From: Octopus vulgaris
Taxonomy: Eukaryota
NCBI GenBank assembly: GCA_951406725.2
Contig: OX597814.1
Location: forward strand, 82,460,001 to 82,524,000
Length of the DNA: 64,000 bases
Direction of reading: 5' to 3'
Under the pieces are notes generated by a model. The model saw only the letters and a program-made list of their open reading frames with translations, searched no databases and had not been told where the DNA came from. Shown here piece by piece: positions 1,277-59,103 of the stretch (its first letter is position 1; the number at the start of each line of letters is the position of its first letter). The translations under genes were made by a program, and so were the position numbers.

Positions 1277-1325
1277 AAGCATTGTATTTCAACAGAAATA
1301 GAAAAGTATTAAGCACAGTACTTAC

Positions 1326-2295
1326 TACATAACCAGATGGGACCTCTCCAGTTGCTGTTGCCACCAAACATATTAGTAGGTGATTCTCCTGGAGAATATC
1401 TCAGGATTCTGTTGTTAGCTCTCTTTACAGGTATATCATCATCACTTTCCTCTTCTTCTATTACATTTTTATCATCCATTTGCATGTCACTTTCAAGATT
1501 TGTAGAACTCTCCTCTTGATCGGCTTCAGTCTGTTCAGCAGTTGCCATAATAATTATAGATGACTTCTCATCTTCACTCTCCTCTTCCTCCTCCTCCTCC
1601 TCTTCTTCTTCTTCTTCTTCTATTTCTTCCTCTTCTTCTTCTTCTTCCTCACTAACTTTCTCACTTTCTTCCTCACTAACTTTCTCACTTTCTTCCTCAC
1701 TAACTTTCTCACTTTCTTCCTCATTTTCTTTCTTGCTTTCTTCCTCATTTTCTTTCTTGCTTTCTTCCTCATTTTCTTTCTTGCTTTCTTCCTCATTTTC
1801 TTTCTTGCTTTCTTCCTCATTTTCTTCCTCTTTTTCCTTTTTTTCCTCTGTTTCATTTTCTTTCTCCTTTTCTTTCTCTCTCTCTTTTCTCTCTCTCTCT
1901 CTTTCTTCTCGCTCTCTTTTTTTTTTCTCTTTCTTTTCTTTTATTCTTTCTTCTCTCTCTCTCTTTTTTCTTTCTCTCTTTTCTCGCATTCTTTCTTCTC
2001 TCTCTCTCTTTTTTTTCTCTCTCCTTTCTTTCGCTCTTTCTTGTCTCTCTCTTTCTTGTCTCTCTCTTTCTTCTCTCTCTCTTTCTTCTCTCTCTCTTTT
2101 CTGTCTCTCTCTTTCTTGTCTCTCTCTTTCTTTTCTCTCTCTCTCTTCTCTCTCTCTTTCCTCTCTCCGTTTTTGTTTCTCTCTTTCTTTTGCTTCCTCT
2201 CTCTCTCTACAATGACATTCTTCATCAATGTCGTGGAAACTACTTTGACTCATCCCCAACTGTACTGGGGCTCTGTAAGGATTTTGTTCATGGTG
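1326..2295 (-). CDS. GH63-like exon 16 (HHEQNPY - 291-aa mostly E/R/K-rich segment - [25 protein letters not shown])
   Basis: Strong poly-T acceptor (tttttag at 2296), donor GTAAGT at 1325, 970-nt open frame continuous with ORF 1309..2259; conserved motifs at both ends in the same frame. Confidence 0.82.
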
Positions 2296-5200
2296 CTAAA
2301 AAAAAAATAAAAAAAATAAAAAAAACCACATAAATCTCTGTTGAGTGGTTTTGAAAAGAAGTGAGAAATGTATCTTCATTCTTTCAAGTCACACATATAC
2401 TCCTGAAAATTATACTGTTTATTATTGAGTTTAAATCCTACAGAAATCAAGCTTTGCCTGTCATTCCTCCAGGACTGGTAAAATAAAACACTACTTGGAT
2501 AGACGATATCAACTAACACCTTCCCTCAAAATTATTGGCCTCATGCCTAAATTGTTATCATCATTGTCATCATGATCACAGAAGTTCAAATCCTGTTGTA
2601 GTCAACTTTGTTTTTCATTTTTCTGAAGTCAATAAAATAAGTATCATTCAATTCACTGCTAAGAAAGTTCACCATGAGGGAAGTTTACCAAGAAAATATA
2701 TCCATAGTACCTCACCATTAATAGTTAATCTATTTTATAGCATAAAAAGCAAACAAAAAAAAAAACAACAAAAAAAACCAACAAAAAAAAACGGTGTATT
2801 GATGACGCTGAACTTTAACTTTTCCTGTAGTGAACTGATGATGGTGAACTTTCCCTGTGGTGAATTGATGACAGTGAACTTAGTGGGCATGTCTTTTCAG
2901 GATTGATAGAATAAAGTATCTGTCAAGCACTAGGGATTGAGTAATTGACTGTATGCTCCCCTTAAAACTAATGGTCTGGTGCCAAAATTAGAAAGAGCTA
3001 TAATAATACTTATTTCTATAGTGGATGGAACATGTGGAAGAGGAAGACTTAGGAAGACATAGGATGAATTACTGAAGGATGACCTCCAGACACTGACCCT
3101 CTCACATGAGATGACAAAGGAACAAGATACCTGGCATCTTGCTGTACTCAAGAAGACCTGTCCTCCACAGCAGATGTGTTAAGGTCGCTACCCCTGGTGA
3201 AGAGGATTGGCCTGCAAGAGTTATGTGCCAATGCCATGTAAAAAGAATTTGTGCCAGTGTCACGTTAAAAACATTCAACAAACACTGTAAAGTGGTTGGC
3301 ATTAGGAAGGGCATCCAGTCACAGAAACCAAACCAGTCAGACTAGAACTTGGTGCAGCTCTCTAGCTTACCAGCTCTGGTCAAATCATTCAACCCATACT
3401 AGCATGGGAAATGGATGTTAAGAGATTATTATTATTGTTGTTATTATTATTATTATTATTCAGTAGTTTTATTTTTATAGCGTGCTTTCACTTCACTACC
3501 GAGTGCAGCTTTGTGTGCCTTGGGTATGTGCTGTGATTTGTTGTGATGCTCTGATGGTTATTGTATGGAAAGTGTTCTGTGTAGGATGTGTGCAGTGCCT
3601 AGTAGTGCAATTTTCTGTATGTTATATGTGTTTGTAAGTCCTGGTGTTTTTGTTATGTATTTGTCTGAATATTTTTTTATCATGCCTAATGCACCTACTA
3701 TGATAGGAATTGTTTCTGTTTTCAGATTCCACATTCTAGTTACCTCTATTTCCAGGTCTTTGTATTTTGAGAGTTTCTCCATTTCTTTTAGAGACACGTT
3801 GTCATCTGCCGGTATTGATACATCAATTAGAAAGCGTTTTTTTCTTCATGATCTCTGACAACTATATCTGGTCTGTTGGCCTTAATTTCTCTATCTGTGT
3901 GTATCGGCATATCCCAGAGTATGGTTGCTTTCTCGTTTTCTGTGACCTTTTCTGGTGTGTGCCTATACCATCTTTTTCTGTTGTTATTCCATAATGTTGG
4001 CATAGCTTCCAATGTATGTAGGTTCCAACTCTGTCATGTCTGTGAATATATTCCTTCTTAGCCAGGACTGGGCAGCTAGAGATAATATGATTTATTGTTT
4101 CTTGTCCATCTCCACATATTCTGCAGTTACTTGTTATATTTCTTTTCATTACATGTTTTTGGCAATTTCTGGTGGGGAGGCTTTGGTCTTGTGCTGCAAT
4201 TAAAAATCCCTCTGTTTCTGCTTTGAGTCCTGAGCTTCTCAACCATTGCTGGGATTTTTCTTTGTCTATTTCTTTTGCGTTTAGTTTAGTCCAGTATTTA
4301 CCATGAAGGGGCTTTTCTTGCCATCGTTTTATCATGGTTCGTTGCTGTTCTATTTTTAGTTTGGATTTCATTTGTTTTATAGCTTTTGTTGTTTCTTCAT
4401 CTTCTTCTTCTTCTTCATATTTATTAGGTGGTATGATTTCTTGTTTGTATTTGTCAGCTTCCTTAAATACTGAGAACAGTATTTTGTTTTGCTCGTGTTT
4501 TGCCGCTATTTGTATCAGTCTTCCTTCCTTCTGAAGGAGATATTTTTGCAGTCCTATGGTGGTTATTTTATAGTAGTTTTCCAGCTGTATAAGGCCTCTA
4601 CCACCTTCTATACATTGTATATATAGTCTTTCTATGTCAGATTTTGGGTGATGCATCCTAGATCCTGTCATTATTTTTCTTGTTTTCCTATCTATTTTGG
4701 TCAGTTCATTTCGTGTCCAGTTAAGGATATTGTAGCTGTAACTTATAACTGGGACAGCTAAAGTGTTAATACCTATTATCTTGTTTTTAGCATTGAGCTC
4801 TGTTTTTAGTATTGATCTAACTCGTTTATAATATTCTTTTTTTATTTTCTCTTTCATTTGTGTGTGTTGTGTCTTATCTAGTTCATGGATTCCTAAGTAT
4901 TTGTAAGTTTGGCTTTGGTCTAATTCTTTTATTTCATTGGTTTTATCTAGTGTGATGTTGCTACTCTTAACTAGTTTTCCTCTTTTCATGGTTACTTTGG
5001 CGCATTTTTCTAATCCAAATTTCATATCTATTTCTTTGGTAAATCCATGAACTGTCTTTAATAGTGTTTCCAGCTGTTTGTCATTTGCAGCGTATAGTTT
5101 TAGGTCATCCATATATAAAAGGTGGCTGATCGTTTTGCCGTAACATTTATATCCGCATCCAGTTCTATTTAGTATATCAGATAGAGGTGACCGTGCCAAG

Positions 5201-6732
5201 CAGAAAAGGAGTGGAGAGAGTGTGTCTCCCTGGAATATTCCTCTTCTAATGGGGATGTCTTTGGTTTTCATGAGTCCCTCTTTTGTTTGGAGGTGTAGGA
5301 CTGTTTGCCATTTATTCATAGAGTGCTCTATGAATTTTATGATTGTTGGTGCTACTTTGTTAATGGCTAGTGTTTCGAGGATCCATGTGTGGGGGATGCT
5401 ATCAAACGCCTTTTTGTAGTCAATCCAGGCCATACTGAGGCCTTTCTTCTTTCTGTGGCTGTCTTCAGTTATGGCTTTATTAATCATTAGTTGATCTTTA
5501 CAGCCATATGAGCCTTTGCGGCATCCTTTCTGCTCTTCTGGGAACAGTTTGTTTTCGTCCAGGTGCTTGTTCAACCTTTGCGATATCACTGCAGTAAATG
5601 CCTTGAACATTGTAGGGAGGCAGGTTATTGGTCTGTAGTTTTCTGGTTTTGCTGTCTCATTTGATTTGGGAATTAAGATGGTTTTCCCCTTCGTGAGCCA
5701 TTCAGGCATTGTCTCTGGCTCTGCTAGTATGCTGTTAAAGTTTTCAGCCAGCTTTTTGTGCATTCCTGTTAGATATTTCAACCAGAAGTTGGGGATCTTG
5801 TCATGCCCAGGTGCCTTCCAGTTGCTTAGTCTTTGCAGTGCCTGGGTGACCTCTTCAGTTGTTATGGGGGTCCAAAGTTGTTCAGATGCCGAGTTTGTTA
5901 TTTTGATACTCCTTTTTTTGGTTGTTCGTTCACCGACCATATTTCTCTCCAGAATTCTTCCAATTCTTCTGCCGTTGGTGCTGCAGTGACTTCTATTTTA
6001 TTTTTGCCAAGTTCTTGGTAGAACTTTTGGGGTTGGAGTTGAACTTTTTGTTTTGTTCAAAGAAGCGCTGGCGTTTCTCGTACCGGCGGATCCTTTGTGC
6101 TTTGGCAAGGATATCTTGCTTCAGCAAATCTTTCTCTGTGATGTTATATTTGTGGAGTATTTTTGTTTTCTTTTTGTTGCTCAGTAGCGTTGATTGTTTG
6201 CTGATTTCATTAAGAATCGACAGATCTTTTCTCATTTTTTGTATTTTGTTTTGGATGTTATTTATCCACAGGGTTTGTTTGGGTGGTGGTACTCCTGTTT
6301 ATTATTATTATTATTATTATTATTATTGGCAAGCTGGTAAAATGCTTAGTGGTATTTCGCCTGAAGCTAGCTTCTGAGTTTAAATTCCACTGAGGTCAAC
6401 TATGCTTTTCAACCTTTTGGGGTTGATAAATTAGGTACCAGTGAAACACTGGGGTTAATGTACTCGACTAGTACCCTCCCCCCAAATTTGGAGCCTTGTG
6501 CCTTCAATAAAAAGGATTATTATTATTATTATTGGTGAGCTGTAGAATTGTTAGCATGCTGGATGAAATGCTTAGCGGCAATTCACCAGTTACTATGTTG
6601 AGTTCAAATTCTGCCAAGGTTGACTTTGCCTTTCATCCTTTCAGGGTGGATAAATTAAGTACCAGTTAAACACTGGGGTTGATGTAATTGACTAATACCC
6701 TCCCACAAGATTTCAGGCCTTCAGTAGAAAGG

Positions 6733-6789
<57 letters not shown>

Positions 6790-9700
6790 GTTTAGGTAGC
6801 AAGCTGGCAGAATCATTAGCATGCTGGGCGAAATGCTGCTAAGCATTTTGTCTGTCTTCGAGTTCAAATTCTGTCAAGGTCAACTTTGCTTTTCTTCTTT
6901 TTAGGATTGATGAAATAAGTACCAGTCAAGCACTGGGATCAGTATAAACAACTAGCGCTCACCCTTCAAAATTGCTTGCCTTATGTCAAAAATTAGAAAG
7001 TATTATTATTATTATTAAAGCAAAGAGTTGGCAGAATCATTAGTACGCTGGGCAAAATGCTTAGCAGTATTTCACTCATCTTAACAAATTCTGCCGAGGT
7101 CAATTTAGCCTTTCATCCTTTAGGGCCCAATGAAATAAGTACCAGTTACATACTGAGGTTGATATAATCAACAATCCACCTCTCCCGAAATTTCAGTCCT
7201 TATGCCTATAGTTGAAAGGATCATTATTATTATTATCATTATTGACATGATGATGGCTCACTTGCATCTAATGAGGCTGCAAAGAGAGAGACTTGGAGAT
7301 GCCACTATGAAAGGTTGCTAAATGAAGAAAATGGGAGAAAGAGAGTCTGCCAAATGTTGACCCAACAGAGGGACCAGCTATCTGAATTGACAGTACTTTG
7401 GTAGATAAAGCAATTAAAGGCGTGAAAACAGGAAAAGCCCCTGGACCATAGGTAATCACCACAGAGATGCTTAAAATATCTGGCAGTGTAGGTTATAGTG
7501 TAGTTGCCCATATAGTCAATCAGGAGATACATGAAGGAGTCATGCACAATGACTGGTGTAGCGGCACCATGGTCAAGTGCTACAAAGGTAAAGGTGACGC
7601 ATTAGATATGAATAATTACAGAGGTATCAAGTTGTTGGACCTGGTGATGAAAGTCATGGAGAGGGTCATAGCCCAACTAATTAGGGAGAGAGTTAGTTTA
7701 GATGAGAGGCAGTTTGGGTTTGTACAAGGGAGAAGCACATCTGATGCTATATTTCTGGTAAGACAGCTGCAAGAGAAATACTTAGCCAAAGATGAACCTC
7801 TGTACTTGGCTTACATTGACATGGAGAAAGCCTTTGACAGGGTCCCCCGATCCCTTATCAAGTGGTCAATGTGGAAACTAGGGATAGATGAATGGTAAGT
7901 GAGAGCTGTACAAACCATGTACAGGGATGCTGTCAGTAAGGTGAGGGTTGGCAGCGAGTATAGCGAAGAATTCTGGGTAGGGGTAGAGGTCTACCAAGGA
8001 TCAGTCCTCAGCCCCCTTTTTATTCATCATAGTCCTCCTGGCAATAACAGAGGAATTCAAGACAGGATGCTCCTGGGAGTTCCTCTATGCTGATGACCTT
8101 GCTTTAATTACTGAGTCACTATCAGAACTAGAGGAGAAGCTTCAGATGTGGAAGCAAGGATTAGAATTGAACGGCCTTGGAGTCAATCTAGCAATAACCA
8201 AAGTCTTTGGTAGAAACTCCATAAGATGTACCCAGTGTAAGCTTTGGACACATAAAAAGTGCAGCAATATCAAAGGAAGGCTAACTAGGAAGATAGTATT
8301 TGTATGTCACAAATGCTCAGGTGCTATAAACACTGAAAATGTGTGGAAAACAGCTTCCATCAATATGCCAGGGGGGAAAACTAGATGTAGTTGATAGCTT
8401 CCATTACCTAGGTGACCAAGTCAGTAGCAGGGGCAGATGCTCTGAGAGTGTAGCTGCTAGAATAAGAATAGCCTGGGCAAAGTTCAGAGAGCTCCTACCT
8501 CTGTTGGACCGAAAGGTAGCCTGTACGACACGTGTGCGAACAGTCATGCTTCACAGCAGTGAAATATGGGCTGAGACTGCTGAGGACATTCGTAAGCTTG
8601 CAAAAAAATGAAGCCAGTATGCTCTGCTGGATGTGTAATATCAGTGTGCATACACGACAGAGTGTAAGTTCCCTGAGAGAAAAGTTGGACATACGAAATA
8701 ATATTTACCAGAGACAAATATAATTCACAGGGAATGAAAGAGAGTTTATCTAAAATGAAGACTGAGATAGAGGAATGAATCTGTGGAGCAGTTGCTCAAC
8801 TAATAAGACCCCTTTTTCAGGCATAGCATTAAGGGAGAAAAATTTGGTGATGTCTGTTTCAGATCAACTTGATCATACTGAGTTAACCCTTTAGTTTTCA
8901 GATTATTCTATTAAGCATATCCTTTATTTATTTAAATTGTTTTGAATTACTCATGTATTATCCCATAGCTTCAAGATTTTAATGATGTGGTAGTTTATTT
9001 TTAGAATGATATTGTAGGGTAAGTGTGAGAGGCCAGATCTGGCCTGTTTGAACATAAAGTAAGGAGAATATTTTGGTCTGATATGGCTGGTTTAAATGCT
9101 AAAGGGTTAAAGAAAAACACAACAACAATCCCACCAAAAAAAAAAAAAAAAAGCAATGATGAAGCCAGAAAGAAAACTTTGTTTCTGTGACAACCAGTGA
9201 GTGGACAACACAGTCACTCAGTAACAAGGAAGAATGTGTAAAAAATATCTATGCAATGTTATGCATTCCAGAATCATGAAACTTCCAATCAGAGATGTAC
9301 TTAGCATTCAGAAAGAAGAAGAAAAAATGGTTATAGGAACAGGCATGGCTCTGTGATAATAAGTTTGTTTCCCAACCACATGATTCCAGGTTCAGTCACA
9401 CTGCATGACACCTTGGGCAAATGTCTTCTATAATCTCAAGCCACTAAAGCCTTGTGAGTGGATTTGGTAGAAGGAAACTGAAAAAAACTTGTCATATATA
9501 CATTTATATGTATATATATGCATGTGTTGCTTTTGTTTTTGACTTTGCCCCCCCCCCCCCCAACAAGCTGAAAACTGGCATTGGTTTGTTTATGTCCCTA
9601 AAACTTGGTTCAGTAAAAAGACCAATAGTATAAGTACTAAGCTTTAAAAAAAAGAAAAAACAAAAGTACTTGGCAGTAGTTTTTCCTTCTGTATTGCATA

Positions 9701-12700
9701 GATACTCTCTTGCCATTCTTGCTATTAAAAAATACAGTGATTCAGTGACTGACTTGTTGGAAATCTATAACCACTAGTGCCACTGCTCACAAAAACCAAA
9801 AGGCAGTGGAGTGACGTAAACAAAATGCCTTGAACTATTTAACTAAACTTTTCTTGGTTTTCATTTTTTTATGCTTTAGCCAAAAGAGGAAGGGCAGAGC
9901 ATATGACCTTTTTTAGGTTTTCCAAGATTGGGTGAGAGGAGGGGAAGAAGTTTGCAGACTAAAGACATGATCTGAATGCTTGCAACAGATTGGAATCTGC
10001 TAAAACCAGAGGAGAGGTAGGTGGTGGTGTTAAGCCAGACATCAGAGTAATTCCACCACCTATTCTAAATTCAGATATTGTCAGAGTTAACTTTCCATTT
10101 CAAGAGTGATGCTCCTTATTGTGTCCCATATTTCTGATTTTTGCTTTGTAAAAGTGCCTGTGTGGTGCTACATAAAAGCATCTATGCAGTGCCACATAAA
10201 AGCACCCAGCACACTTCATAAAGCGGTTGATATTAGGAAGGGCATCCAGCTGAAGAAACCATGACAAATTAGACTGGTGTCAGGTGGAGCTCTCCAGCTC
10301 TGGCCAAACCATCCAACCCATGCCAGCATGGACAATGGACATTAAATGTTGATAATGATGGTAATTTTACCAGGTTTGGTAAAATAAGTGCACTTACATA
10401 AACATATAGGTATGTGGGTATTTTGAAAATAACTCAAGGGGTGATGACTGTGCCCAGCATAGTTATGGGTTGTCCTTTGGCAAGGCATAACACCCATTCA
10501 GCCACCCTGCCAGGGATATAGCAGATTGGCAGATGTGATGAGGCAGTATAAGAGCTCAACTGAACCAACAGTGCTTCCTACATTGATGTTGAGCAGAGGA
10601 ATCCTAGAAGGTCAACGGTCAGGATCACCCAGGTCTATCAAGAGAGTAACTGCAACACATCCATTGTTGTGTAATCAGCTGATGAAAGACTCGTGATTCA
10701 AGCTTCCAATTCAAATATGAATAGTAGAACTGGGTAGCAACAGGGAGTCATGGGAATCTGTGCAAGCAGCACAACCAAGCTATATAAACATACAAGCAAA
10801 AACATGCACACATCCACACATGCATATACATGCATGCAAGCACAGGCAGTTTGTTTAATTCAAACTTTGAAGATTTTATTTTATGAATAGGATGTAAAAG
10901 AAAAGTAACAACAAACCTTTGAAAGAGATCTAATTCCAAAGGGAGACAAGAATTCTGTCTCACTGAATAGGTAACCCAGAATATGTTGGAGCTGTTCAGA
11001 AGAAACGAATGATAAAAATAGCTTGTTGTTGTCGATATGCACCTAAAAGAAAAGAAAAGAAAGCAATGAAGCAGCTGCAGCCATAGACTTTGAATGAAAC
11101 GGATATCTGGAGATAATTGATATATTAACCCTTTCATTACCAAGCTGGCTGAAACTGGCTCTGGCTCTGAGTACAAATGTCTTGTTTTCGTAAGTTTTGA
11201 ATTAAAATCTTCCACCAAACCTTAGTTACAATTTATGTTCCTAACACTAGCTGAATGATAATTAAGTTATTTTACTAAATTCTTTGTTATATTTAAAGTA
11301 ATTGAAAGAAACACAGAACATTTCAAAATAAATATAATAATGAAAGGGTTAACAGCTATTGTTATGGTTTAACTCCAGGTCAAGCATAATCAAGGAGACG
11401 TGTGATCAAAAGTATTCCAGTTGTAACCAACCTGTTTTTCTCTTTTTAAGCTCAGATTACATTGTCGAATTTCTCCCTTTCGTTTTTGTTTTATTAAAGA
11501 TGGTGAGATTTGGCTACTATCTTTAGCAAGTTCAGTGACATCATAGTATTTCCTTCATTGACTCATGTTGATGTACTTGTAGTGTATAGTGGTAACAACC
11601 TGGGTTGGCAAGATGCAGTGGTATTGTATGTAGTTGTAACTGCATACATTAGTGGAATGATGAAGAGGTAGTAATTATTGTTGTCTTACCCTAGGTCAGT
11701 CTTGATACAGCAGACCATTCCAACTGTGACCATACCACCTTTTATTCAGACATAGAATTATATTATCTAATGTACTCATCCTTTTTAAGTTTGGTAAAAA
11801 TATGATGTACGGGTGATTTAGCTGCTATTACTAGAAGTTGAGGGACTATGTAAAGACTTCCTAGTAGTAGGCAATGGTAATGGTAAAAGATGAAATATAT
11901 ATCAATTAATCAATGCAGTGTAGTAAGATGGCAGTGGTGGTAGTGGTTGTTAGTGTTGTTTTGTCCTAGATCAGCCTTAACAGAACAGATTTATGACTAA
12001 AAGCATGACCATCGCATTCCTTTTTTTTAAAGGGAGATTTAGCAACTGTTTCTCTCAGGGAAAGTGACCATTTAAAGGCTGTATGAAGTGTAGTGATAGG
12101 TGTATCCAATAGAGATACAGTGTAGATGCAGCTGTAGTTGTGTAACCACAGGTCAGCTCTGATCAAGCAGTCCTGTTGTATGTAGAAAGTTGATCAAACT
12201 ACCAGGCATGAACCACAAGTCTTAGTTATGCCATTATACCATGTGTCTACCTAGCTGAGGACAATAGAGCTTGCTCTGATACATAGTGACAAAATGTATG
12301 AGGTGCTGCAGCGTTGATAGCCTGGACATATTGCACTCAAACTACTATCAAGTTAATTTCTATATGCTTAGAAATTCTGGTGGTGGTTACAGTGGAAGTA
12401 GGCAAAATGGACTTGGTTAGACTATGAAAGTTGCTATTCCTCTGCTCTAATTGTTTCTGTTTTAGACTAGGGAAGCTATTCATGCCACAGCTACTTCTGG
12501 TGTGTCTGTGTTTTTTATGTTTGTCTAGGTCAGTGGTTCTCAACCATTTTGTCCCAGTGGACCCATTTCATTGCTATTTTACTCAGTGGGTGGGATTCTC
12601 AAAAACATTCGATATCAAAAACTCCTATTATACTTTTGTGATTAAATATTATTAGGAATTGTATACAAAATTGTTTAAATATTTTGTGTATAACCAGCAC

Positions 12701-15504: not shown

Positions 15505-17105
15505 ATGTATATATATATACATATCATCATCATCATCATCATCATCATTTAGCGTCCGTTTTCCATGCTAGCATGGGTTAGACGGTTCAACGCCAACCAC
15601 TCCGAGAGTGTAGTGGGTGATTTTATGTGCCACCGACACAGGTGCCAGACGAGGCTGGCGAACGGCCACGCTTGGATGGTGTTTTTATGTGCCACCGACA
15701 CAGGTGCCAGACGAGGCTGGCAGACGGCCACGCTCGGATGGTGTTTTTATGTGCCACCGACACAGGTGCCAGATGAGGCTGGCGGACGGCCACGATCGGA
15801 TGGTGTTTGTTACGTCCCCAAAGCACAGAGGCCAGTCTATGCGGTACTGGCTACGGCCACGTTCGGATGATTTTCTTGTGTGCCACCGGCACTGGTACCA
15901 CAAAGATACAAATTCCATTGATGTTCATCTATTTTGATTTGTTTTGATTTGATTTGATTTTCACTTGCCTCAACAGGTCTTCACAAGTGTCACAAGAAGG
16001 AAGGTATGCACAGGTGGACTGACTACGTCCCAGGTAGGGGCCACGGGTTATGGCCTGACTAGTCTTGCCGGGTCTTCGGATGGTGTTTTTATGTGCCACC
16101 GACACAGGTGCCAGATGAGGCTGGCGAACGGCCACGATCGGATGGTGTTTGTTATGTGCCCACAGCATGGAGGCCAGTCGATGCGGTACTGGCTACGGCC
16201 ACGTTTGGATGGTTTTCTTGTGTGCCACCGGCACTGGTACCACAAAGATACAAATTCCATTGATGTTCATCTATTTTGATTTGATTTGATTTGATTTTCA
16301 CTTGCCTCAACAGGTCTTCACAAGTGTCACAAGAAGGAAGGAAGGTATGCACAGGTGGACTGACTACGTCCCAAGTAGGGGCCACGGGTTATGGCCTGAC
16401 TAGTCTTGCCGGGTCTTCGGTTGGTGTTTTTATGTGCCACTGACACAGGTGCCAGATGAGGCTGGCGAACGGCCACGATCGGATGGTGTTTGTTATGTGC
16501 CCACATCACAGAGGCCAGTCGATGCGGTACTGGCTACGGCCACGTTCGGATGGTTTTCTTGTGTGCCACCGGTACTGGTACCACAAAGATACAAATTCCA
16601 TTGATGTTCATCTATTTTGATTTGGTTTGATTTGATTTGATTTGATTTTCACTTGCCTCAACAAGTCTACACAAGTGTCACACACTTGCCTCAACAGGTC
16701 TTCACAAGTGTCATAAGTAGGAAGGTATGCACAGGTGGACTGACTACGTCGCCGGGTCTTCGGATGGTGTTTTTATGTGCCACCGACACAGGTGCCAGAT
16801 GAGGCTGGCAAACGGCCACGATCAGATGGTGTTTGTTGTGCCCACAGCACGGAGGCCAGTCGATGCGGTACTGGCTACGGCCACGTTCGGATGGTTTTCT
16901 TGTGTGCCACCGGTACTGGAACCACAAAGATACAAATTCCATTGATGTTCATCTATTTTGATTTGGTTTGATTTTTACTTGCCTCAACAGGTCTTCACAA
17001 GTGTCACACGTGTCACACACTTGCCTCAACAGGTCTCCACAAGTGTCACACACTTGCCTCTGCCTCAACAGGTCTTCACAAAGTGTCACACACTTGCCTT
17101 TGTAT

Positions 17106-18562: not shown

Positions 18563-21500
18563 TATATATATGTAATATGTATATATATTTGACAGCCAAA
18601 TGTGGAGTCCTGTATGGAACAGTGCTATTGATGTTTATAGCCCCACGAAGACATCTCTTCCAGCTAGCTAATGATACACATTCCGATTAGTATTTGCGAG
18701 GGGAAGTCATCGCTTCTATCCCTAGCCTTACATGATACACATGGACTCAAGTTCCTGGGTGGTTACCCGCACTCAACGTATGCTAATCACCAGCTAGTGA
18801 TGGAAACTCACCCCACTCACAAAATATTATATGCTTTTTCCAGCTAGTGATTAACACATGCTGAAGAAGGGTAACCACCCAGAAACTCGAGTCCTTCATC
18901 ATCATCATCATCATTGTTTAATGTCCACCTTCCATGCTGGCATGGGTTTGACTGAGGACTGGTGAGCCAGATGGCTGCACCAGGCTCAGTCTGATCTGGC
19001 AAAGTTTCTACAGCTGGATGCCCTTCCTAACGCCAACCACTCCAAGAGTGTAGTGGGTGCTTTCACATGCCACTGGCATGAGGGCCAGTCAGGTGGTTCT
19101 GGCAACAACCACGCTCAAAAGGTGTTTTTTACGTGCTACCTGTATGGGAGCCAGAAATGTTGTTTCTCACGTGCCACCAGCACATGTCCCAGTAAGGTGA
19201 TGCTGGCAATGATCACACTTGAATGGTGCTTTTTACATGCCACTGGCACAGGAGCCAATCCATGGCCCTGGCAATTATCACGTTCAGATGTGCTTTTAAT
19301 GATCCACTGGCATGAGTGCCAATCAGGCAGTACTGTCATTGGCCACATCAGCAATTTTGATTTCACTTGCCTCAATAGGTCTTTGCAAGCAAAGTTTATT
19401 GTCCAATGAATAAGGGGTACTCATAAGTGGACTCATTACACCCACTGGCATAGGCCATGGGCTATGGTCTCATTTGGCTTGTCAGGTCTTCTCAAGCACA
19501 GCATATCTCCAAAAGTTTCAGTCACTAGTCATTGCCTCAGTAAGGCCCAATGTTCGAAGGTCATGCTTTACCACCTCATCCCAGGTCTTCCTGAGTCTAC
19601 CTCTTCCACAGGTTCCCTCAACTGTTAGGGTGTGACACTTTTTCACACAGCTGTGCTTATTCATTCCCAACACATGACCATATCTGCACAGTCATCTATC
19701 TTGCACACCACATCTGATGTTTCTTAAATCCAACTTTTCTCTCAAGGTGCTTACATCCAGCATAACATACTGGCTTCATTCCTTGCAAGCTTATGCATGT
19801 CCTCAGCAGTCACAACCCATGTTTCACTGCGATGTAGCATGGCTGTTTGTACACATATGTCATACAGTCTACATTTTATTCTGAGCGAGAGGCCTTTTGT
19901 CACCAGCAGAGGTAGGAGATCTCTGAACTTTGCCCAGGCTATTCTTATTCTCGCAGCTACATTTTTAGAGCATTCACCCCTGCTACAGACTTGGTCACCT
20001 AGGTAACGGAAGCTATCAACTACTAGTTTTTCACCCTGGAATGTGGCAGAAGCTGTTCTCTGCACATTTTCATTGTTTATAGTACCTAAGCATTTGTCGC
20101 ATACAAAAACTATCTTCCTTTGATATTGCTGCACCTCTTATGTGTCCATAGCTTACACTAGGTACATATTATGGTGTTTCTACCTATGCCTTTTCTAAAG
20201 ATCGAGCAGGGCAATTTACTTGAAGGGATTTGTGATTTGTTTGCCTTCCTACTTATTAAGACTTTGATTTTAGCTAAGTTGACTCCAAAGCCCTTCGATT
20301 CTAATTCTTGCTTCCACGCCTGCAACTTTTCCTCTAGTTCTGACAGTGACTCAGCAATTAAAGCAAGGTCATCAGCATAGAGGAGCTCCTGGGAGCATCC
20401 TGTCTTGAATTCTTCTGTTATTGCCAGGAGGACTATGATGAATAAAAAGGGGGTTGAGGACTGATCCTTGGTGGACCCCTACCCCTACCAGAAATTCTTA
20501 CTGACAGCATCCCTGTACATGGCTTGTACAGCTCTCATTTACCATTCCTCTATCCCTAGTTTCCACATTGACCACCAGATAAGGGATCAGGGGACCCTGT
20601 CAAAGGCTTTCTCCATGTCAACAAAAGCCAGGTACAAAGGTTTATCTTTGGCTAGGTATTTTTCCTGCAGCTGTCTTACCAGAAATATAGCATCAGTGGT
20701 GCTTTTCCCTTGTACGAACCCAAATTGCATCTCGTCTAAACTGACTCTCTCCCTAATTACCTGATTCAACAACTTGATACTTCTGTAATTATTTGTATCT
20801 AAAGTGTCACCTTTACCTTTGTAGCAGTTGACTATCATGTTGCTACACCAGTCATTGGGTATGACTCCTTCGTGTATCACCTGGTTAACTATGCGGGTGA
20901 CTAGCTATAGCCGACACTGCCAGATATTTTGAGCATCTCTGCAGTAATTTCTGATGGGCTGGGGGCTTTCCCTGTCGTCATACTTTTAATTGCTTTATCT
21001 ACCAAGGTACTGTCAACTCGGATAACTGGTCCCTCTGTTGGGTCGACATTTGGCAGACTCTCCAAACCTCTCTCTTTGCATCCTCATTTGGCGTAAGTGA
21101 ACCATCATCCATGTGAACACATTTCTCTCCTACATCACAATTCTCTCTCACACACTGTCTTGCAACACGAAATACCTCAAGTCTTTGGTCTTCACGGCGC
21201 AGAACATTGGCAAAGTTTTTCTTATCTGCTTCCCCTCTGGTTAAATAAACCTGTCTCCTAGCTTCCCTTCAAGCAATCTGATACAATTCCCTGCTTCCAT
21301 CATTCTTCCAGTCCTTCCAAGCCTGTTTCTTTTCCTTAATGGCCCTGTCAACAACATTGTTCCACCACCACATTAACTTGGGTCAAGAGGGGACTTTGCA
21401 CCATCCGTAGATCTGGTCAGTGGCCCTCAGCAGGTTGTCCCATAAAAACTTCCAGTTGTCTTCCACATCATGTGATGCTATATCCCCCTCTATTTCATCA

Positions 21501-25600: not shown

Positions 25601-28600
25601 ATGACTCATACACTGTTCACTTTTCTGACATTTGTACATAATTCTACATACTATACATGCACCCTTGATAAGTTGAAGTGCACCTGAGCACTATATACAA
25701 TAATTTCATTATAGTAGTAGTAGTAGTAGTGGTGATGGTGGTGGTGGTGGTGGTGAAACAGAAAAGAAGAGAGTATTGGTTTCAAAACCAGTTAGTGGCA
25801 ATAAAATGGATAAATTCATCGAAAATAGAAATTTCTCAATTATGAGTGAAGTTTACTACAAATAAAAACTCAAGTTTTGATTTTCAAAACAAGATTTATT
25901 TAGAATTATATAACAAAAATATCTAGAATAGAAACAAGGTGTATTCATTTACAAAACTTACCTGAGCAAGGATATATCCAGGTGGTGATCCAGTGGAACG
26001 GTTGAATATCGAAATATTGTCCATACCTAAGAAACCTCCAGAATATAGATGACCAGGGCCAGAAATTTTATTTGTGTTTGTCCACCTAGCAATAGAGCAT
26101 GGAAGAAAATTTCACAATATTTTGTTTTTTTATTTCTCATAATAATTATTAATAAAGAGGGTGGTAAAGTAATGAAATAGCAAGTAGCAAGTAATATCCA
26201 GGCTTGTCTCTCTGAGTTCAACCTATTATTGTTGATTTTATTTTTTATCTTTCTATTAGTCTATAATTACAATTTGATTCACATCTAGAATACATTATAG
26301 AAATTAACTCCAATGCTTGACTGGTACTTTATTGTATCATCCTGGAAAGGATAAAGATGATCATGGTAGGATTTGAACTCAGGACATAAAAAGCTGTAAT
26401 CAAATACTGTAGGTATTCTGTCTGATACTCTAATGAAGTCAAATCACTATCTCTAGTTTCAATCAGCTATAGACCTCTAAAATTATGCTAATATAAAAAA
26501 ATCATTGTTTAGAAATGACACATTAAATAACAGCCAAGAGATTTTGTGCTATGTTAGTATCCAACTTATGACTGTAAAATAAGTTCAAACATTAAGATTA
26601 CAACCTGTAATGTAGCTCAAAACTGTAATGTAGCTCAAAACTGTAATGTAGCTCAAAAGAAGGCTCTCAACTCCATATGATCTTCAGGAAATTTTACTCT
26701 TAGTTCATGATGAAGTATTTCAAAAAGAACACAAAAACCCTCCAGTTGTAAAAAAACAATTGCTCCAGCAGTCTGTCTAAATTTGTGTAAGTCACTCCAA
26801 CGTAGCAGAAAATAATAAATGCTGAATATAAGACAGTGGTTGTTAAATAACCGTAGATTGCCTAGGAGAGTCCTAACCGCTGTCATAATTTAAGAGATAG
26901 CAGAGGATACAAGAAATGTCATAGTTTACATCAGACTGCATCTAATGCAGAGCACGCAAACCATAGATACCATTATAATCATTTTCAACGATTATTTCAT
27001 GTTCATTTTTACATGACAGCTTGAGTTGGATGTTTTTTTTTCTTAAAGAGCATTTTATGCCCAGATACTTGTCCTGTTGCCAACCCTTTCAGTTGCATAT
27101 TAAGACATGCATCGATATAATGTACATAGTTCAAAACCAAGGTACACAGTGTAATAAAGATCATGATGGAAGTTAAAGCATTATGATAATAATTTTTGTG
27201 AATGATTAGTTGGTTTTACAATTTTGTGGTTAAACATATTGACTCCTGGTTTCAGTCAAAGAAGCTGATTCAGTCCATCTTATAATTATGTACAATGGAT
27301 AGTTAAAACACATAAGCAGCAAGGTAAACAGTAAAATTAAAATATATTTTCTTGGCTTAAAATATTGAGTTTAAGTGTTCCTGTGGGCTTGATCTATGAT
27401 ATAATGTTCAAATGAAAGCTCTCCCTATGACTTAGCAAGATATCACCAACAAAACTTACTTCCAGTTATTCTAACTCAGACTTTCTTCCCTATTCCTCTA
27501 AATTCATCTTCAGTCTTGACCATTCTCAACACTCCTCCAACCAGCATTTATTTGACTACCTTTCAGCCCGTGACAGAATTATCATTTATTTTATTCTCTT
27601 TACCTTTTATCTTTTTTCTTGTTTTAGTCATTAGACTGTGGCCATACTGGGGCATCATCTTGAAGAGTTTTAGTCAAACTAATTGACCCCAGTATTTTTT
27701 TAAAGTCTTGAACTTATTCTATCATTCTCTTTTACCAAACAACTAAGTAATGGGGACGTAAGTTATGGTTATCAAGTGGTGATGAGGGACAAACACAAGC
27801 ATAAAAACAAAAAACTAGGAAGAACAAAGGACATTGTTTACAAGTTGATGATCAAATGCTCTCTTTAATTTTTGTTTTAAAGTAATAAACTGCTAGAGTT
27901 TACTTACACCATATTCACTACATTATAAAGAAAAAAGAATTAGTATTTAATGTACAGAATTAGTGACAAAGTTGTAAACTTACCAGTTGTAATTCAATAA
28001 TAATCGGTGAAAACATTTCTTTAGAAAGCTCACATCATATGAACCACTATTATGATAAACAGAGAGACACGCCCAACAATGTACAGGGGGGTTTGTATCA
28101 CTGAAGTCAAATTCACAACCAGGAAGCTGCAGAAAAAAGTGAACAACTATGTTACAAATAGTAAATTAAAGAATGTTTCTTCTAGTATGTGTGCATGCAC
28201 ACATACATACATACATATGTATGTACATGTATGTGCATATATGTTTGCTCATTTGTTCTCTTTCTCTCTTTAATTTAGAATAAATTTTTACTGGCCACTA
28301 ACTTTGGTAGTAAGGTTGTGAAAGAACGCATCATGTTTTAACCATCATCCTTTAAATTTTAAGAAGGTCTTGTAGATTTTTATAATTCTAGATATTGCGA
28401 TCATTTGTAGCATATGAATTAAGGATTTGCGTTCTCTTCTCAAGACCCACAGTTCAGCCATACTTTGCTACAGATGAGTTAGTATGCATTCTATTGCTGC
28501 AATAACAATAAGTATGAAGCTGAAAGTGTATCTTGGGTACAGGATCTGCAAACCCCTTATCCATAAATGTCCTCTTTCACCTGTATTTTTCAACCACATG

Positions 28601-54800: not shown

Positions 54801-55618
54801 TTTGTGTGTATGTATGTATATACGTATGTATATGTGTGCATGCGTGTGTATGTATGTATATGTGTATATCTATGTCTATGTATGTATATGTGTATATCTA
54901 TGTCTATATACACACATATATATATATATATAGACGCAGACCCAGGAAAACCTGGGACGAGGTGGTGAAGCACGACCTTCGAACTTTAGGTCTCACTAAG
55001 GAAATGACTAGAGACCGAGACCTCTGGAAGTGTGCTGTGCGCGAGAAGACCTGGCAGGACAAGTGAGTCCATAACCCGTGTATGCATACCTTCCCTTCTT
55101 GGGACACAAAACTCTACTTGTGAAGACCTGTTGAGGCAAGTGAGGATCAGAATCGAAATTGATCAATGGAAATTGCAGATGTGTTACCAGTGCCGGTGGC
55201 ATGTAAGAGAACCATCCATTGGCGACCGTTGCCAGCGCCGCCCCGACTGGCCTCGTGCCGGTGGCACGTAAAAAGCACCATCCGTTCGTGTCCGTTGCCA
55301 GCCTCGCCTGGTCCCCGTGCCGGTAGCACATTAAAAGCACCATCCGTTCGTGGCCGTTTGCCAGCTCTGTCTGGCACCTGTGCGGGTGGCACGTAAAAAG
55401 CACCCACTACACTCACGGAGTGGTTGGCGTTAGGAAGGGCATCCAACCATAGAAACACTGCCAGATCTGACTGGGCCTGATGAAGCCTTCTGACTTCACA
55501 GACCCCAGTTGAACCGTCCAACCCATGCTAGCATGGAAAATGGACGCTAAATGATGATGATGATGATATATATATATATATATATATATATTTGTGTGTG
55601 TGTATGTATATATATATG

Positions 55619-58600: not shown

Positions 58601-59103
58601 ATACTTCTATTTCAAGCTGATAATGGTTGTGAGATAAGAAGTTTGCTTCCTAACCACATGGTTCCAGGTTCAGTCCAACTGCATGACACCTTGGGCAAAT
58701 GTCTTCTACTAAGCCTCAAGCTGACCAAAGCTTTGTATGTGGATTTGGTGGATGGAAACTGAAAGAAGCCTGTTGTATACATGTGTGAGTGTATGTGCCT
58801 GTATTTGTCCCCCCCCCCCAGCACTGTTTGACAACCAGTGTTGGCATGTTTACATCCCTGTAACTTAACAGTTTGCCAAAACAGACTGATAGAATAAGTA
58901 CCAGGCTTAAAAAAGATAAGTACAGAGGTTGATTCATTTCAACTAAAAATTCTTCAAGGTGATGCCCCAGCATGGCCACAGTCTAATAACTGAAACAAGT
59001 AAAAGATAAAAGATACTAACCAGTCTCCAGAAAATGAGTAGTCTTCACGGACGGTCCCCCACTGGCGTTCAGAGAGGTAGGGCCCAAAGAATTCGTCACC
59101 CAT
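1326..59103 (-). CDS. Spliced gene (16 coding exons in window, 3'-partial): GH63/MGH1-like glycoside hydrolase, YMR196W-like (alpha/alpha)6 glucosidase family
   Basis: Exons joined by hand, all GT-AG, with phases consistent over 3103 nt and no stop codon. Family motifs occur in order: [117 protein letters not shown]...[31 protein letters not shown]...[13 protein letters not shown]. An in-frame TAA lies 6 codons upstream of the ATG. Confidence 0.92.
1590..2210 (-). repeat. Coding purine-rich tandem repeats: (GA)n-derived ER/K units, 24-bp [16 protein letters not shown] units, (GAA/GAG)n poly-Glu
   Basis: Directly visible CT-rich tract on the + strand. Confidence 0.95.
3461..6298 (-). mobile_element. 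5'-truncated Dong/R4-like non-LTR retrotransposon (RT + CCHC knuckle + restriction-like endonuclease), frameshifted
   Basis: ORF 3862..5940 has [27 protein letters not shown] and [17 protein letters not shown]. The PD..D endonuclease pieces (NRPDIVV, KE.EK..KY.DL) are in adjacent frames. (TAA)n flanks both ends. Confidence 0.88.
6328..7222 (+). mobile_element. Four head-to-tail copies of a ~200-bp SINE separated by (TTA)n tracts
   Basis: Repeated gagctggcagaat..ttagcatgctgg..gaaatgcttag..gagttcaaattc (B-box-like)..aagtaccag..gaaaggattatt; other copies near 34250-34480(-), 45530-45710 and 59545-59760. Confidence 0.8.
7262..8695 (+). mobile_element. Decayed RTE-clade LINE RT fragment
   Basis: [47 protein letters not shown], with stops and frameshifts. 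Confidence 0.88.
8887..9106. mobile_element. piggyBac-like MITE (TTAA TSD, CCCTTTAG...CTAAAGGG TIR)
   Basis: TTAA|ccctttag ... ctaaaggg|TTAA; related copy at 39818-40040. Confidence 0.75.
10917..11042 (-). CDS. GH63-like exon 15 ([13 protein letters not shown]...[13 protein letters not shown])
   Basis: acceptor tcttttag, donor GTTTGT, 126 nt, phase 0 to 0. Confidence 0.92.
11129..11348. mobile_element. piggyBac-like MITE (TTAA TSD, CCCTTTCATTA TIR)
   Basis: TTAA|ccctttcatta ... taatgaaaggg|TTAA. Confidence 0.8.
13061..13116 (+). ncRNA. Degenerate type I hammerhead ribozyme motif
   Basis: tct-CTGATGA-..atatccc(atacctg)gggatat..-GAAA-gagct-GTA-aga; the first stem III pair is mutated. Confidence 0.5.
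13372..13462 (-). ncRNA. Type I hammerhead ribozyme (inverted copy, sense to the host pre-mRNA)
   Basis: Reverse complement of 14335-14425; stem I atttc/ttc pairs with gaa(t)gaaat. Confidence 0.8.
14335..14425 (+). ncRNA. Type I hammerhead ribozyme (intact core)
   Basis: atttcttc-CTGAAGA-gaaagacacaat...attgtgcctttc-GAAA-C-ACGT-GTA^gaatgaaa; predicted cleavage after 14416. Confidence 0.8.
14781..14894 (-). ncRNA. Degenerate hammerhead motif with long stem II
   Basis: Minus strand: CCGAAGA-ggcc..atgtctcattta..taaatgagacat..ggcc-GAAA-tagct-GTC-ag; core U4>C substitution. Confidence 0.55.
15525..17100 (-). repeat. RTE 3'UTR-derived tandem array: ~59-bp units nested in four ~341-bp units, with (GAT)n tail
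   Basis: Marker cacaaagatacaaattcc at 15899, 16241, 16582 and 16923; related UTR follows the RTE ORF end at 55066. Confidence 0.85.
17164..17213 (-). ncRNA. Minimal type I hammerhead ribozyme (sense to the host pre-mRNA)
   Basis: Minus strand caaaaactgt-CTGATGA-a-cg(gcaa)cg-a-GAAA-ctcaga-GTA-acagattttg. Confidence 0.78.
18049..18096 (+). ncRNA. Minimal type I hammerhead ribozyme
   Basis: caaaaactgt-CTGATGA-acggcaac-GAAA-ctcaga-GTA^acagattttg; stem I 9/10 bp; predicted cleavage after 18086. Confidence 0.75.
18855..18897 (+). ncRNA. Type I hammerhead motif with a degenerate inverted partner at ~18738-18785
   Basis: cacatg-CTGAAGA-a-gggt(aacc)accc-a-GAAA-ctcga-GTC; the 3' strand of stem I is cut off by an RTE tail but preserved (catgtg) in the inverted copy. 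Confidence 0.65.
18897..22000 (-). mobile_element. Decayed RTE-clade LINE (APE endonuclease remnant, RT, 3'UTR, (GAT)n tail)
   Basis: [63 protein letters not shown]. Confidence 0.9.
22198..22397 (-). CDS. GH63-like exon 14 ([13 protein letters not shown]...[11 protein letters not shown]...SSSK)
   Basis: acceptor tttccag, donor GTACAA, 200 nt, phase 1 to 0. Confidence 0.88.
23200..23731. mobile_element. Degenerate foldback/MITE-like element with long imperfect inverted repeats
   Basis: 23200-23390 is an imperfect reverse complement of ~23565-23731; the terminal motif also recurs as a direct copy at ~23525-23565. Confidence 0.55.
24025..24432 (+). mobile_element. tRNA-derived SINE (octopus-type)
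   Basis: A box TGGCTGTGTGG, B box GGTTCAGTCCC, ccttgggcaagt core; copies at 9346, 34705(-), 35935(-), 52285(-), 55665 and 58625. Confidence 0.85.
24580..24739 (-). CDS. GH63-like exon 13 ([11 protein letters not shown]...STNKA)
   Basis: acceptor ctatag, donor GTAAGT, 160 nt, phase 0 to 1. Confidence 0.92.
25962..26085 (-). CDS. GH63-like exon 12 (WTN...[15 protein letters not shown]...LAQ), contains the putative catalytic G-x-D-N Asp
   Basis: acceptor ttgctag, donor GTAAGT, 124 nt, phase 2 to 0. Confidence 0.92.
27984..28126 (-). CDS. GH63-like exon 11 ([20 protein letters not shown]...RLLLNYN)
   Basis: acceptor ttctgcag, donor GTAAGT, 143 nt, phase 0 to 2; not in ORF track. Confidence 0.92.
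28646..31079 (+). mobile_element. Decayed hAT-superfamily (hATm-like) DNA transposon, ~2.4 kb
   Basis: TIR AGGGATACAACTTTT/AAAAGTTGTATCCCT plus subterminal IR; broken transposase [25 protein letters not shown]. Confidence 0.7.
32406..32522 (-). CDS. GH63-like exon 10 ([12 protein letters not shown]...YLHPNGQ)
   Basis: acceptor ttccag, donor GTAAGA, 117 nt, phase 0 to 0. Confidence 0.93.
32854..33230 (-). mobile_element. mariner-derived fragment
   Basis: TA-tgaaggtcaactgaaaagttcata end; minus-strand HDNAP remnant. Confidence 0.55.
33686..33822 (-). CDS. GH63-like exon 9 (...RNQHW...[13 protein letters not shown])
   Basis: acceptor attttag, donor GTTTGT, 137 nt, phase 1 to 0. Confidence 0.9.
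34950..35840 (-). mobile_element. RTE LINE fragment with internal deletion
   Basis: [19 protein letters not shown] fused to [15 protein letters not shown]. Confidence 0.85.
36172..36301 (-). CDS. GH63-like exon 8 ([35 protein letters not shown]...)
   Basis: acceptor ttgttag, donor GTAAAA, 130 nt, phase 0 to 1; not in ORF track. Confidence 0.9.
36705..37012 (+). mobile_element. tRNA-derived SINE, second family
   Basis: ggtttagtggttaggg, gtttgactcc, ccttaagcaagacacttt core. Confidence 0.6.
37987..38189 (-). CDS. GH63-like exon 7 ([15 protein letters not shown]...AKNFYTM)
   Basis: acceptor ttttttcag, donor GTACTG, 203 nt, phase 1 to 0; VNP...GTK motif. Confidence 0.87.
40122..40244 (-). CDS. 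GH63-like exon 6 (CFVAKF...LFTEND...[10 protein letters not shown])
   Basis: acceptor tttctag, donor GTAAGC, 123 nt, phase 1 to 1. Confidence 0.9.
40296..41846 (-). mobile_element. Internally deleted hAT transposon
   Basis: TIR CAGTGGTGGGCACAG/CTGTGCCCACTACTG, subterminal GCTAA repeats; C-terminal dimerisation remnant LFTKYNT...[20 protein letters not shown]. Confidence 0.8.
42478..43210 (+). mobile_element. Old Dong/R4-like REL retrotransposon 3' fragment
   Basis: [33 protein letters not shown]; parallels the 3461-6298 element. Confidence 0.72.
43393..43496 (-). CDS. GH63-like exon 5 (DTWSHY...CVHYSE)
   Basis: acceptor ttttcag, donor GTACTA, 104 nt, phase 2 to 1; completes the WLRDTWS motif (family WFRNTWS). 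Confidence 0.82.
43651..44546 (-). mobile_element. Internally deleted mariner element
   Basis: TIR tgaggtagtatcaaaag..ctggactagtt / aactagtccag..ttttgataccacctca; minus-strand [10 protein letters not shown] remnant. Confidence 0.75.
44655..44793 (-). CDS. GH63-like exon 4 ([15 protein letters not shown]...LPQIWL)
   Basis: acceptor ttttcaag, donor GTTAGT, 139 nt, phase 1 to 2. Confidence 0.88.
47434..47608 (-). CDS. GH63-like exon 3 ([13 protein letters not shown]...EYEIVDT)
   Basis: acceptor ttttttcag, donor GTTGGT, 175 nt, phase 0 to 1. Confidence 0.92.
47780..48363 (+). mobile_element. LINE 3' fragment ending in a (GAA)n tract
   Basis: RL.WFGHI.RM-type C-terminal remnant followed by more than 20 GAA units. 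Confidence 0.55.
49209..49823. mobile_element. hAT/Charlie-like MITE interrupted by an RTE tail
   Basis: TIR cagtagttctcaa / ttgagaaccactg; related 5' part at 12531. Confidence 0.65.
52109..52151 (-). ncRNA. Degenerate hammerhead motif in a ~360-bp element between (TA)n tracts (51880-52240)
   Basis: Minus strand tctaca-TTGATAA-gggtcaaatagcct-GAAA-cta-GTC-tgtaga; perfect 6-bp stem I, core differs from CTGATGA at two positions. Confidence 0.55.
52956..54247 (+). mobile_element. Full-length (1292 bp) mariner (DD34D) element with pseudogenised transposase
   Basis: TA TSD; TIR cgaggagtgtatgaaaagttttgagcct / aggctcaagacttttgagacaccccttg; [29 protein letters not shown]; stop at ~53820 and frameshifts. 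Confidence 0.92.
54335..54503 (-). CDS. GH63-like exon 2 (WKYCTHHD...[11 protein letters not shown])
   Basis: acceptor aacag, donor GTAATT, 169 nt, phase 2 to 0. Confidence 0.92.
54935..55567 (+). mobile_element. RTE LINE 3' end with 3'UTR tandem repeats and (GAT)n tail
   Basis: [19 protein letters not shown]...DK* followed by UTR; many shorter tails elsewhere (e.g. 660-885, 3015-3425, 10150-10360, 44957, 51177). Confidence 0.85.
56066..57560. mobile_element. Older inverted-repeat element (arms ~56066-56280 and 57255-57451) with decayed hammerheads, ending at (TA)n
   Basis: Arms are imperfect reverse complements; combined consensus atgcag-CTGATGA-...catttaaattga..tcaattaaatg..-GAAA-c.gtc-GTA-ctgcat; internal ~350-bp-spaced direct repeat at 56272 and 56625. 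Confidence 0.65.
59021..59103 (-). CDS. GH63-like gene coding exon 1 ([27 protein letters not shown])
   Basis: ATG at 59103, donor GTTAGT, ends in phase 2; not in ORF track. Confidence 0.9.

Follow-up and report, generated by a model that had tools for sequence, protein, structure and literature searches.

The window analysed here, a stretch of 64,000 nt of the Octopus vulgaris genome, contains an exon that raises an unusual question. Exactly 291 residues, most of them encoded by purine-rich repeats, lie between HHEQNPY and RYSPGES, two conserved motifs of a glycosidase. Is this tract a translated part of the protein, how did it reach its length, and does it serve the enzyme that carries it? 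The original prediction, made from the DNA letters, had proposed an insertion of about 280 aa inside the catalytic domain, created by repeat expansion and forming a rod or a disordered appendage. Here, we follow up this proposal with comparisons among related proteins, structure prediction and searches for the tract in other sequence data.

The gene hosting the exon was identified by protein search. The 3′ part of the exon is 100% identical to the O. sinensis protein XP_036357618.1 (uncharacterized YMR196W), and the next matches come from O. bimaculoides and then from Argonauta hians. From 59103 to 1326, the window covers sixteen coding exons, and 903 of the 906 residues covered agree exactly with XP_036357618.1. 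In Octopus, the gene extends over more than 58 kb; the final ~110 aa of the protein, including the predicted catalytic base E985, fall beyond the window. A Pfam search with the exon alone returned no family. For the RefSeq protein, MGH1-like_GH scored 54.8 bits (curated cut-off 27) and Glyco_hydro_63 33.3 bits (cut-off 22.4), the Pfam families of the YMR196W-like GH63 and MGH1-like glycosidases being PF22422 and PF03200. No signal peptide was obvious at the N-terminus when judged by eye. The residues D426, D530 and E985, which we take to be the subsite -1 Asp, the acid and the base, are at least 90% conserved among 120 sequences. By profile they align with the MhGgH residues mutated in the PDB entries D43A, D182A and E419A, a match that depends on a presumed 2-residue tag offset. 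These roles of the residues at the catalytic positions are treated in PMC13671375. For the yeast protein Ymr196w, one source gives ties to iron and mitochondria by profiles only (10.1101/2024.02.29.582718).

An AlphaFold model was calculated for the 1016-aa RefSeq form, that is, the shorter form of the insert and not the one in the window, with an alignment of 120 sequences. It reached a mean pLDDT of 87, with values of at least 90 at 771 of 1016 residues, and contains a predicted N-terminal beta-sandwich and an (alpha/alpha)6 barrel. The predicted fold matches that of ER glucosidase I (Foldseek E 4e-22; VIA Z 24.2, rmsd 3.2, 614 residues aligned). By every feature tested, in sequence and in the predicted model, the host protein is a member of the GH63/YMR196W-like glycosidases. 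It might be supposed that the insertion has disabled catalysis and that the gene is decaying or encodes a non-catalytic protein, since the loop stands immediately before a conserved motif of 11 protein letters and no activity is on record for any family member in the literature found. This appears extremely unlikely to us: all 16 exons of the window have an open frame and their product is nearly identical to RefSeq, the core is 93% identical to that of O. bimaculoides, D426, D530 and E985 are kept, and the barrel is predicted to be intact.

Other repeats are also present in the window. A 711-aa open frame with a reverse-transcriptase-like YMDD motif lies at 3862-5997 on the minus strand, in the intron that precedes the exon, and has further frames on its flanks; the region 3558-6298 (-) looks like a non-LTR retrotransposon copy in pieces. 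Frames at 53148-54173 (+) and 43788-44039 (-) resemble mariner/Tc1 transposase remnants, and intronic fragments at 7452-8608 (+), 19754-22128 (-) and 35230-35460 (-) resemble parts of another LINE family (reverse transcriptase and endonuclease). Related tandem arrays of 62-bp and 341-bp units, with a G+C content above their surroundings, are located at 15616-17099 and 55240-55404. A perfect (AAG)25 run, which shares its triplet class with the coding poly-Glu, occurs in an intron at 48289-48364.

The exon itself (Table 1) belongs to an open frame of 328 codons on the minus strand at 1309-2295 and starts in phase 0, in agreement with the phase-0 donor of the exon that finishes at 10917. As originally described, it is a single open 970-nt exon with a good T-rich AG acceptor and a GTAAGT donor, in frame with the conserved motifs at both ends. 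The tract within it is the sole one in the window of at least 100 bp with at least 90% purine or pyrimidine. With regard to GAA-rich sequence as an exonic splicing enhancer, an effect mentioned in the original prediction, GAAGAA hexamers were counted 25 times. It had been cautioned that purine tracts rarely contain stops and that frame preservation is merely 1-in-3 evidence. The two alternative frames contain 7 and 31 stops, respectively, and the acidic tail stayed free of stops in 0.3% of dinucleotide shuffles, the non-repetitive head in 29%; empirical intron values for staying open were 5.8% for the tail and 29% for the head. Base shuffling of the whole tract left 0 of 5000 sequences open, which overstates significance because the repeats are broken, so that only the head and tail values were used. 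Given the stops in the other frames and the tail shuffle, the frame evidence lies well above 1 in 3, a figure valid for the purine core only.

Table 1. Features of the YMR196W-like gene and of its insertion in the window (positions of the window)
Feature	Position	Strand	Remarks
First coding exon (ATG)	59023..59103	-	First of 16 coding exons in the window
Exon with GGFLGMDN, predicted catalytic acid D530 (RefSeq numbering)	25962..26084	-	
Upstream exon, end GIRSLSK, phase-0 GT donor	10917..11039	-	Precedes 970-nt exon
Splice acceptor	2296..2325	-	Poly-T tract, AG at 2296-2297; pyrimidines 18/20
970-nt coding exon of YMR196W-like GH63 gene	1326..2295	-	323 codons + 1 nt, HHEQNPY ... WRGPIWLC
291-codon insertion	1402..2274	-	Takes the place of a ~11-aa segment, predicted beta-hairpin in bivalve relative
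Non-repetitive head, 22 aa	2209..2274	-	Identical to O. bimaculoides model at 18/22
E/R/K block, 116 aa	1861..2208	-	Net charge +15; 97% purine, with a period of 15 nt (5 aa, EREER-type)
126 codons without counterpart in O. sinensis RefSeq model	1717..2094	-	No GT dinucleotides inside
24-nt (8-aa) minisatellite, 70 aa	1651..1860	-	Units EEESKKEN and EEESEKVS, net charge -22
Poly-Glu, 24 aa	1579..1650	-	E9-I-E14; RefSeq XP_036357618.1 has E10-I-E11
Acidic non-repetitive tail, 59 aa	1402..1578	-	Predicted disordered; matches O. bimaculoides at 47/59
Splice donor GTAAGT, phase 1	1320..1325	-	3′ border of 970-nt exon

The size of the insertion was assessed in 461 fetched proteins, of which 380 contained both anchor motifs and 81 were left out because one was missing. 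The distance from RSLSK to Y.PGES is at most 22 residues in 345 of the 380 proteins and 19 in 292, and a distance of 19 corresponds to 11 residues where the window has 291. The net insertion thus amounts to 280 aa, just as proposed, and the expectation of a usual spacing of 10-15 residues is borne out by relatives with mostly 10-11. Distances of 26-40 were found in 9 of the 380 proteins and distances above 40 in 26, all of them from cephalopods or acorn worms. Longer loops at this site occur in all five cephalopod sequence groups sampled; Nautilus was absent from the matches of the search for relatives. The insert comprises 291 residues in the window, 163 in the O. sinensis RefSeq protein, 159 in the O. 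bimaculoides model, 57 in Argonauta, 72 in the Sepia pharaonis cluster (13 of 15 members, the other two being N-terminal fragments), 126 in all 7 members of the cluster around P0058, and 46-55 in the acorn worms Ptychodera, Glandiceps and Saccoglossus. The O. bimaculoides model (P0002) is without the exon for residues 85-143 (47608-47432 in the window) and enters an intron past residue 84; it is therefore imperfect, and its loop length is uncertain. A second acidic expansion was observed in a different loop of the Sepia cluster and of P0058, with 115 and 102 aa between anchors. Five of 13 Sepia-cluster members (P0176, P0178, P0182, P0186 and P0187, as compared with P0057, P0177 and others) lack 76 aa of this second expansion in frame, probably through alternative splicing.

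In a quick tree of 36 proteins (SH-aLRT support only, midpoint root), the five cephalopod sequences group in a single clade (SH-aLRT 100), placed among proteins of bivalves and chitons whose loops have 19-20 residues, and P0058 is sister to Sepia. The proteins of Aplysia, Bulinus and Haliotis are placed away from this clade and likely represent a second paralog. The molluscan YMR196W-like proteins form two tree groups (P0001, P0003, P0057, P0085, P0061 and P0076 versus P0022, P0040 and P0050), which are likely two paralogs, with every cephalopod match in one of them. Aplysia and Haliotis, considered as an outgroup for dating, were discarded, as they group apart and the bivalve and chiton proteins are nearer to the cephalopods. 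As to the suggested comparison with mollusc orthologs, a long loop is found in the other cephalopods as well; the Aplysia and Haliotis matches probably belong to another paralog. Since the cephalopod clade is nested among short-loop bivalves and chitons, the expansion in acorn worms is likely independent of that in cephalopods. All five cephalopod loops start with x-x-Pro-Val/Ile and have an acidic Ser/Asp patch near their end; these common features suggest a single ancestral loss of the hairpin in coleoids. The loops are, however, unalignable among Octopus, Argonauta, the Sepia/P0058 pair and the acorn worms (z at most 1.4), and homology of the loops across lineages was rejected on this basis, the exceptions being two within-lineage pairs and an acorn-worm pair at 3.1.

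The internal composition of the Octopus insert was found as originally described, with an E/R/K block (116 aa, against an expected length of about 110), 8-aa repeats, poly-Glu and an acidic tail. The E/R/K block contains 46 E, 39 R and 22 K (K+R 61), is 92% E/K/R and contains neither Pro nor Gly. Purine-only codons encode just E, K, R or G, and the charged composition therefore needs no extra explanation. Autocorrelation peaks at lags of 45, 15 and 30 in the E/R block and at 24 and 48 in the block that follows it; as in a coding minisatellite, the tract has tandem units of periods 15 and 24 in the coding frame. The assumption of a microsatellite origin is right with respect to repeat expansion and wrong with respect to a plain microsatellite: the longest pure (GA)n run measures only 15 nt, which led us to reject a simple (GA)n origin, and the units are 15- and 24-nt minisatellites together with GAA/GAG triplets. 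Within the tract, the period is divisible by 3 in 8 of its 9 tandem-repeat rows, versus 17 of 49 elsewhere in the window, the rows being overlapping and non-independent; this bias fits slippage filtered for the reading frame. The view that repeat expansion created the appendage needs a correction, as 81 of the 291 residues are non-repetitive and the loop is already expanded in other cephalopods, so the Octopus repeats would have grown inside an existing long loop. Both Octopus reference models contain the head, the E/R block, the 8-aa repeats, the poly-Glu and the tail. The E/R block measures 33-38 aa in them versus 116 in the window, and O. sinensis and O. bimaculoides are 82% identical in the head and 80% in the tail versus 93% in the core.

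The same gene is thus already represented in RefSeq with a 163-aa version of the insert, and the window exon is longer than that of XP_036357618.1 by 128 codons net: 126 codons (2094-1717) are missing in the model, which furthermore differs by +1 and -3 Glu. Could the tract be spliced out of the mRNA, wholly or in part, to give a shorter, RefSeq-like protein? The O. sinensis protein indeed corresponds to the window exon minus an internal segment and the small poly-Glu differences, the O. bimaculoides model is similarly short, both the head and the 24-nt units contain GT, and 7 GC lie in or border the missing part. On the window sequence, however, a canonical intron cannot produce the RefSeq junction because the missing 126 codons contain no GT; internal YAG sites are preceded by at most 11 pyrimidines in 20 positions, whereas 18 of 20 precede the true acceptor, and no run of pyrimidines exceeds 6 nt. 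We therefore do not attribute the short form to a canonical intron; it more likely reflects a shorter allele or a difference of model or assembly.

Further evidence comes from other cephalopods. Eleven Sepia-cluster and 7 P0058-cluster proteins stem from contigs of 3.1-3.8 kb with frames of 790-1039 aa, which we infer to be spliced transcripts because the Octopus gene exceeds 58 kb. All 18 of these transcript-sized contigs that reach the loop retain it, among them 5 that skip the separate 76-aa segment. Removal of the tract by splicing seems quite improbable. The 291 codons, open and flanked by splice sites, are likely translated. Protein searches did not bring up the long form, or any fragment of it, from Octopus, and no short Octopus protein with the insert was seen among the best 120 of 454 matches (8000 candidates scored), a search in which fragments broken by the repeats are easily missed.

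Another explanation of the length difference is that the extra 126 codons are spurious and that the true loop comprises ~160 aa; both reference models are shorter, and tandem purine repeats are prone to assembly errors. To set against this, the extra part is degenerate instead of a perfect duplication, and the frame is kept. The presence of the tract in sequencing runs was examined with 93 sampled words, of which a share of 0.05 is expected if the insert is absent and 0.56-0.63 for the RefSeq-length form. Of the 24 runs listed, 19, from 7 studies with 2 organism labels, contained 0.67-0.79 of the words, and five added runs 0.00-0.02. The listed runs containing the words include no RNA run and speak for the presence of the tract while being silent on its expression. 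With shares above the expectation of 0.05, the tract exists outside this assembly, although one run may be the source sample. A share of 0.67 is indistinguishable from the short form (P 0.30). Shares of 0.73-0.79 were reached in 11 of the 24 listed runs, with binomial P values against 0.63 of 0.018 at 0.74 and 0.001 at 0.79 under the assumption of even word sampling, and at these higher shares more than the short form is probably present. An assembly artefact is therefore very hard to credit.

What the insert may look like was assessed with the check that had been proposed, an AlphaFold prediction, run on the RefSeq form. The model shows one isolated helix at 733-788 (pLDDT 79-96 over 741-780), which includes the first 38 aa of the E/R/K block, followed by an acidic arm with predicted disorder at 787-876 (pLDDT below 50), and the bridges at 717-718 and 880-881 are kept. 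In a control model of the Solemya protein, the corresponding segment forms a two-strand hairpin with strands at 714-718 and 721-725. The proposed appendage thus receives support from the prediction of a long isolated helix and a disordered acidic arm, and, given the composition and i,i+4 charges of the E/R block, the rod is physically plausible; selection for a rod is not supported.

According to a further interpretation, the insert is a selected appendage, either a single-alpha-helix rod or an Arg/Glu mixed-charge domain with an acidic arm, that would retarget the enzyme to the nucleus or condensates or bind basic partners. If the 116-aa block were one helix, the rod would be up to about 17 nm long. 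Besides the confident isolated helix and the composition without Pro and Gly, opposite charges in the block are enriched at i,i+4 (62 opposite versus 32 same-charge pairs, z 3.3), the architecture is common to two Octopus species, and long acidic loops occur in all cephalopod groups sampled. The alternating charge with a net value of +15 also resembles Arg-rich mixed-charge domains, which go to nuclear speckles according to PMC9324279. However, the +1 frame of the same DNA has an equally strong i,i+4 bias (z 4.2), i,i+3 pairs are not enriched (z -0.9), and the strongest signal is that at i,i+1 (z 5.0). We therefore rejected i,i+4 spacing as a sign that a single alpha helix has been selected for; to all appearances, the charge pattern simply follows from the 15-nt unit. 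Furthermore, the E/R block has just 33-38 aa in the reference models and is not found in Argonauta, Sepia or P0058, and the insert as a whole is strongly net acidic. A selected appendage of this kind appears unlikely. The insert is classed neither as a canonical single alpha helix nor as an exitron.

The explanation we prefer, with a probability of roughly 0.62, is a near-neutral expansion by slippage in an insertion-tolerant surface loop that is carried on a working enzyme, as suggested by the sequence comparisons and the predicted structure. An ancestral, predicted beta-hairpin of ~11 aa would have been lost in the coleoid ancestor and given way to an expanded loop. In Octopus, this loop then likely lengthened through frame-preserving slippage of codon-aligned purine repeats of 15, 24 and 3 nt. 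The predicted barrel would still fold and the two stems would still pair despite the insert, which presumably hangs off the intact catalytic barrel as an E/R helix plus a disordered acidic arm. Selection would act mainly on the reading frame and the solubility of the loop and not on its length or sequence, and the insert likely has little function of its own. Some observations do not sit easily with near-neutral expansion, namely that each of the two Octopus reference models falls short of the window by about 130 aa, that the protein searches yielded no long form from Octopus, and that the order of head, E/R block, 8-aa repeats, poly-Glu and tail is kept in two Octopus species and the acidic Ser/Asp patch before the loop end in all five cephalopod groups, for either of which selection is possible.

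The value of the locus lies in a graded series of lengths at one site, with 11, 57, 72, 126, about 160 and 291 residues, the acorn worms standing apart, and in showing how purine repeats alone can yield a helix-prone mixed-charge segment inside a catalytic domain. A more far-reaching idea, which we consider improbable, is that coleoids turned the beta-hairpin of an orphan glycosidase into a hypervariable charged appendage, and that a length-polymorphic minisatellite in Octopus tunes the rod and an acidic arm that retarget the enzyme to the nucleus or to condensates. If so, a targeting module would have been born of purine repeats in a catalytic domain, and alleles of about 160 and 290 residues would constitute a natural experiment. 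Should the long and short Octopus forms be true alleles that alter localisation or activity, the birth of a module by slippage would become testable; otherwise, the insert is best seen as a tolerated passenger that can serve as a length marker.

The insert is undescribed in the literature listed for YMR196W, MGH1 and octopus GH63, a collection that took in few subscription journals, and none of the YMR196W literature concerned cephalopods as judged by title or the start of the abstract. Among known enzymes, the best structural matches are ER alpha-glucosidase I (MOGS/Cwh41), YgjK and MhGgH. The acids at the catalytic positions align with theirs, but identity to the solved GH63 structures is only 16-18%, and in glucosidase I RSLS is joined straight to the FG..N.WRG motif, without the segment that bears the insert.

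For the insert itself, different systems can be compared. Single alpha-helix (ER/K) domains are described as ~80% E/K/R, with i,i+4 salt bridges and without tertiary contacts (10.1101/2022.02.18.481080). The E/R block resembles them in its composition, its i,i+4 enrichment and the long helix predicted in the short RefSeq form. Canonical single alpha helices also show a blocky E4K4 pattern with i,i+3 pairs. In the octopus block, by contrast, i,i+1 alternation with a 5-residue period dominates, i,i+3 pairs are not enriched, the pattern also occurs outside the coding frame, the length is unconserved, and the block is located inside a catalytic domain. Arg-enriched mixed-charge domains, as described for nuclear speckle targeting (PMC9324279), alternate Arg with acidic residues and have a small net positive charge. 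The block agrees with this in its Arg, Lys and Glu content and its net charge per residue of +0.13, and differs in having Glu for Asp, in belonging to a metabolic enzyme and in adjoining a larger acidic block.

The low-complexity insertions of Plasmodium falciparum are characterised in PMC3434054 as long and biased, of unknown function, believed to be non-globular and sometimes located inside a domain. The octopus insert is likewise long, compositionally biased and within a domain; unlike them, it occurs in an animal, is driven by purine minisatellites (E/K/R) and not by A+T bias, and marks a single site at which cephalopods and acorn worms likely each acquired their own expansion. Both charged tracts encoded by repeats and low-complexity insertions in the loops of enzymes are known, and the shorter form of the present insert is in RefSeq, so we do not regard the locus as a new system. 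It is a striking and extreme example of a known phenomenon, an insert that, by analogy, would behave like coding minisatellites and the within-domain insertions of Plasmodium.
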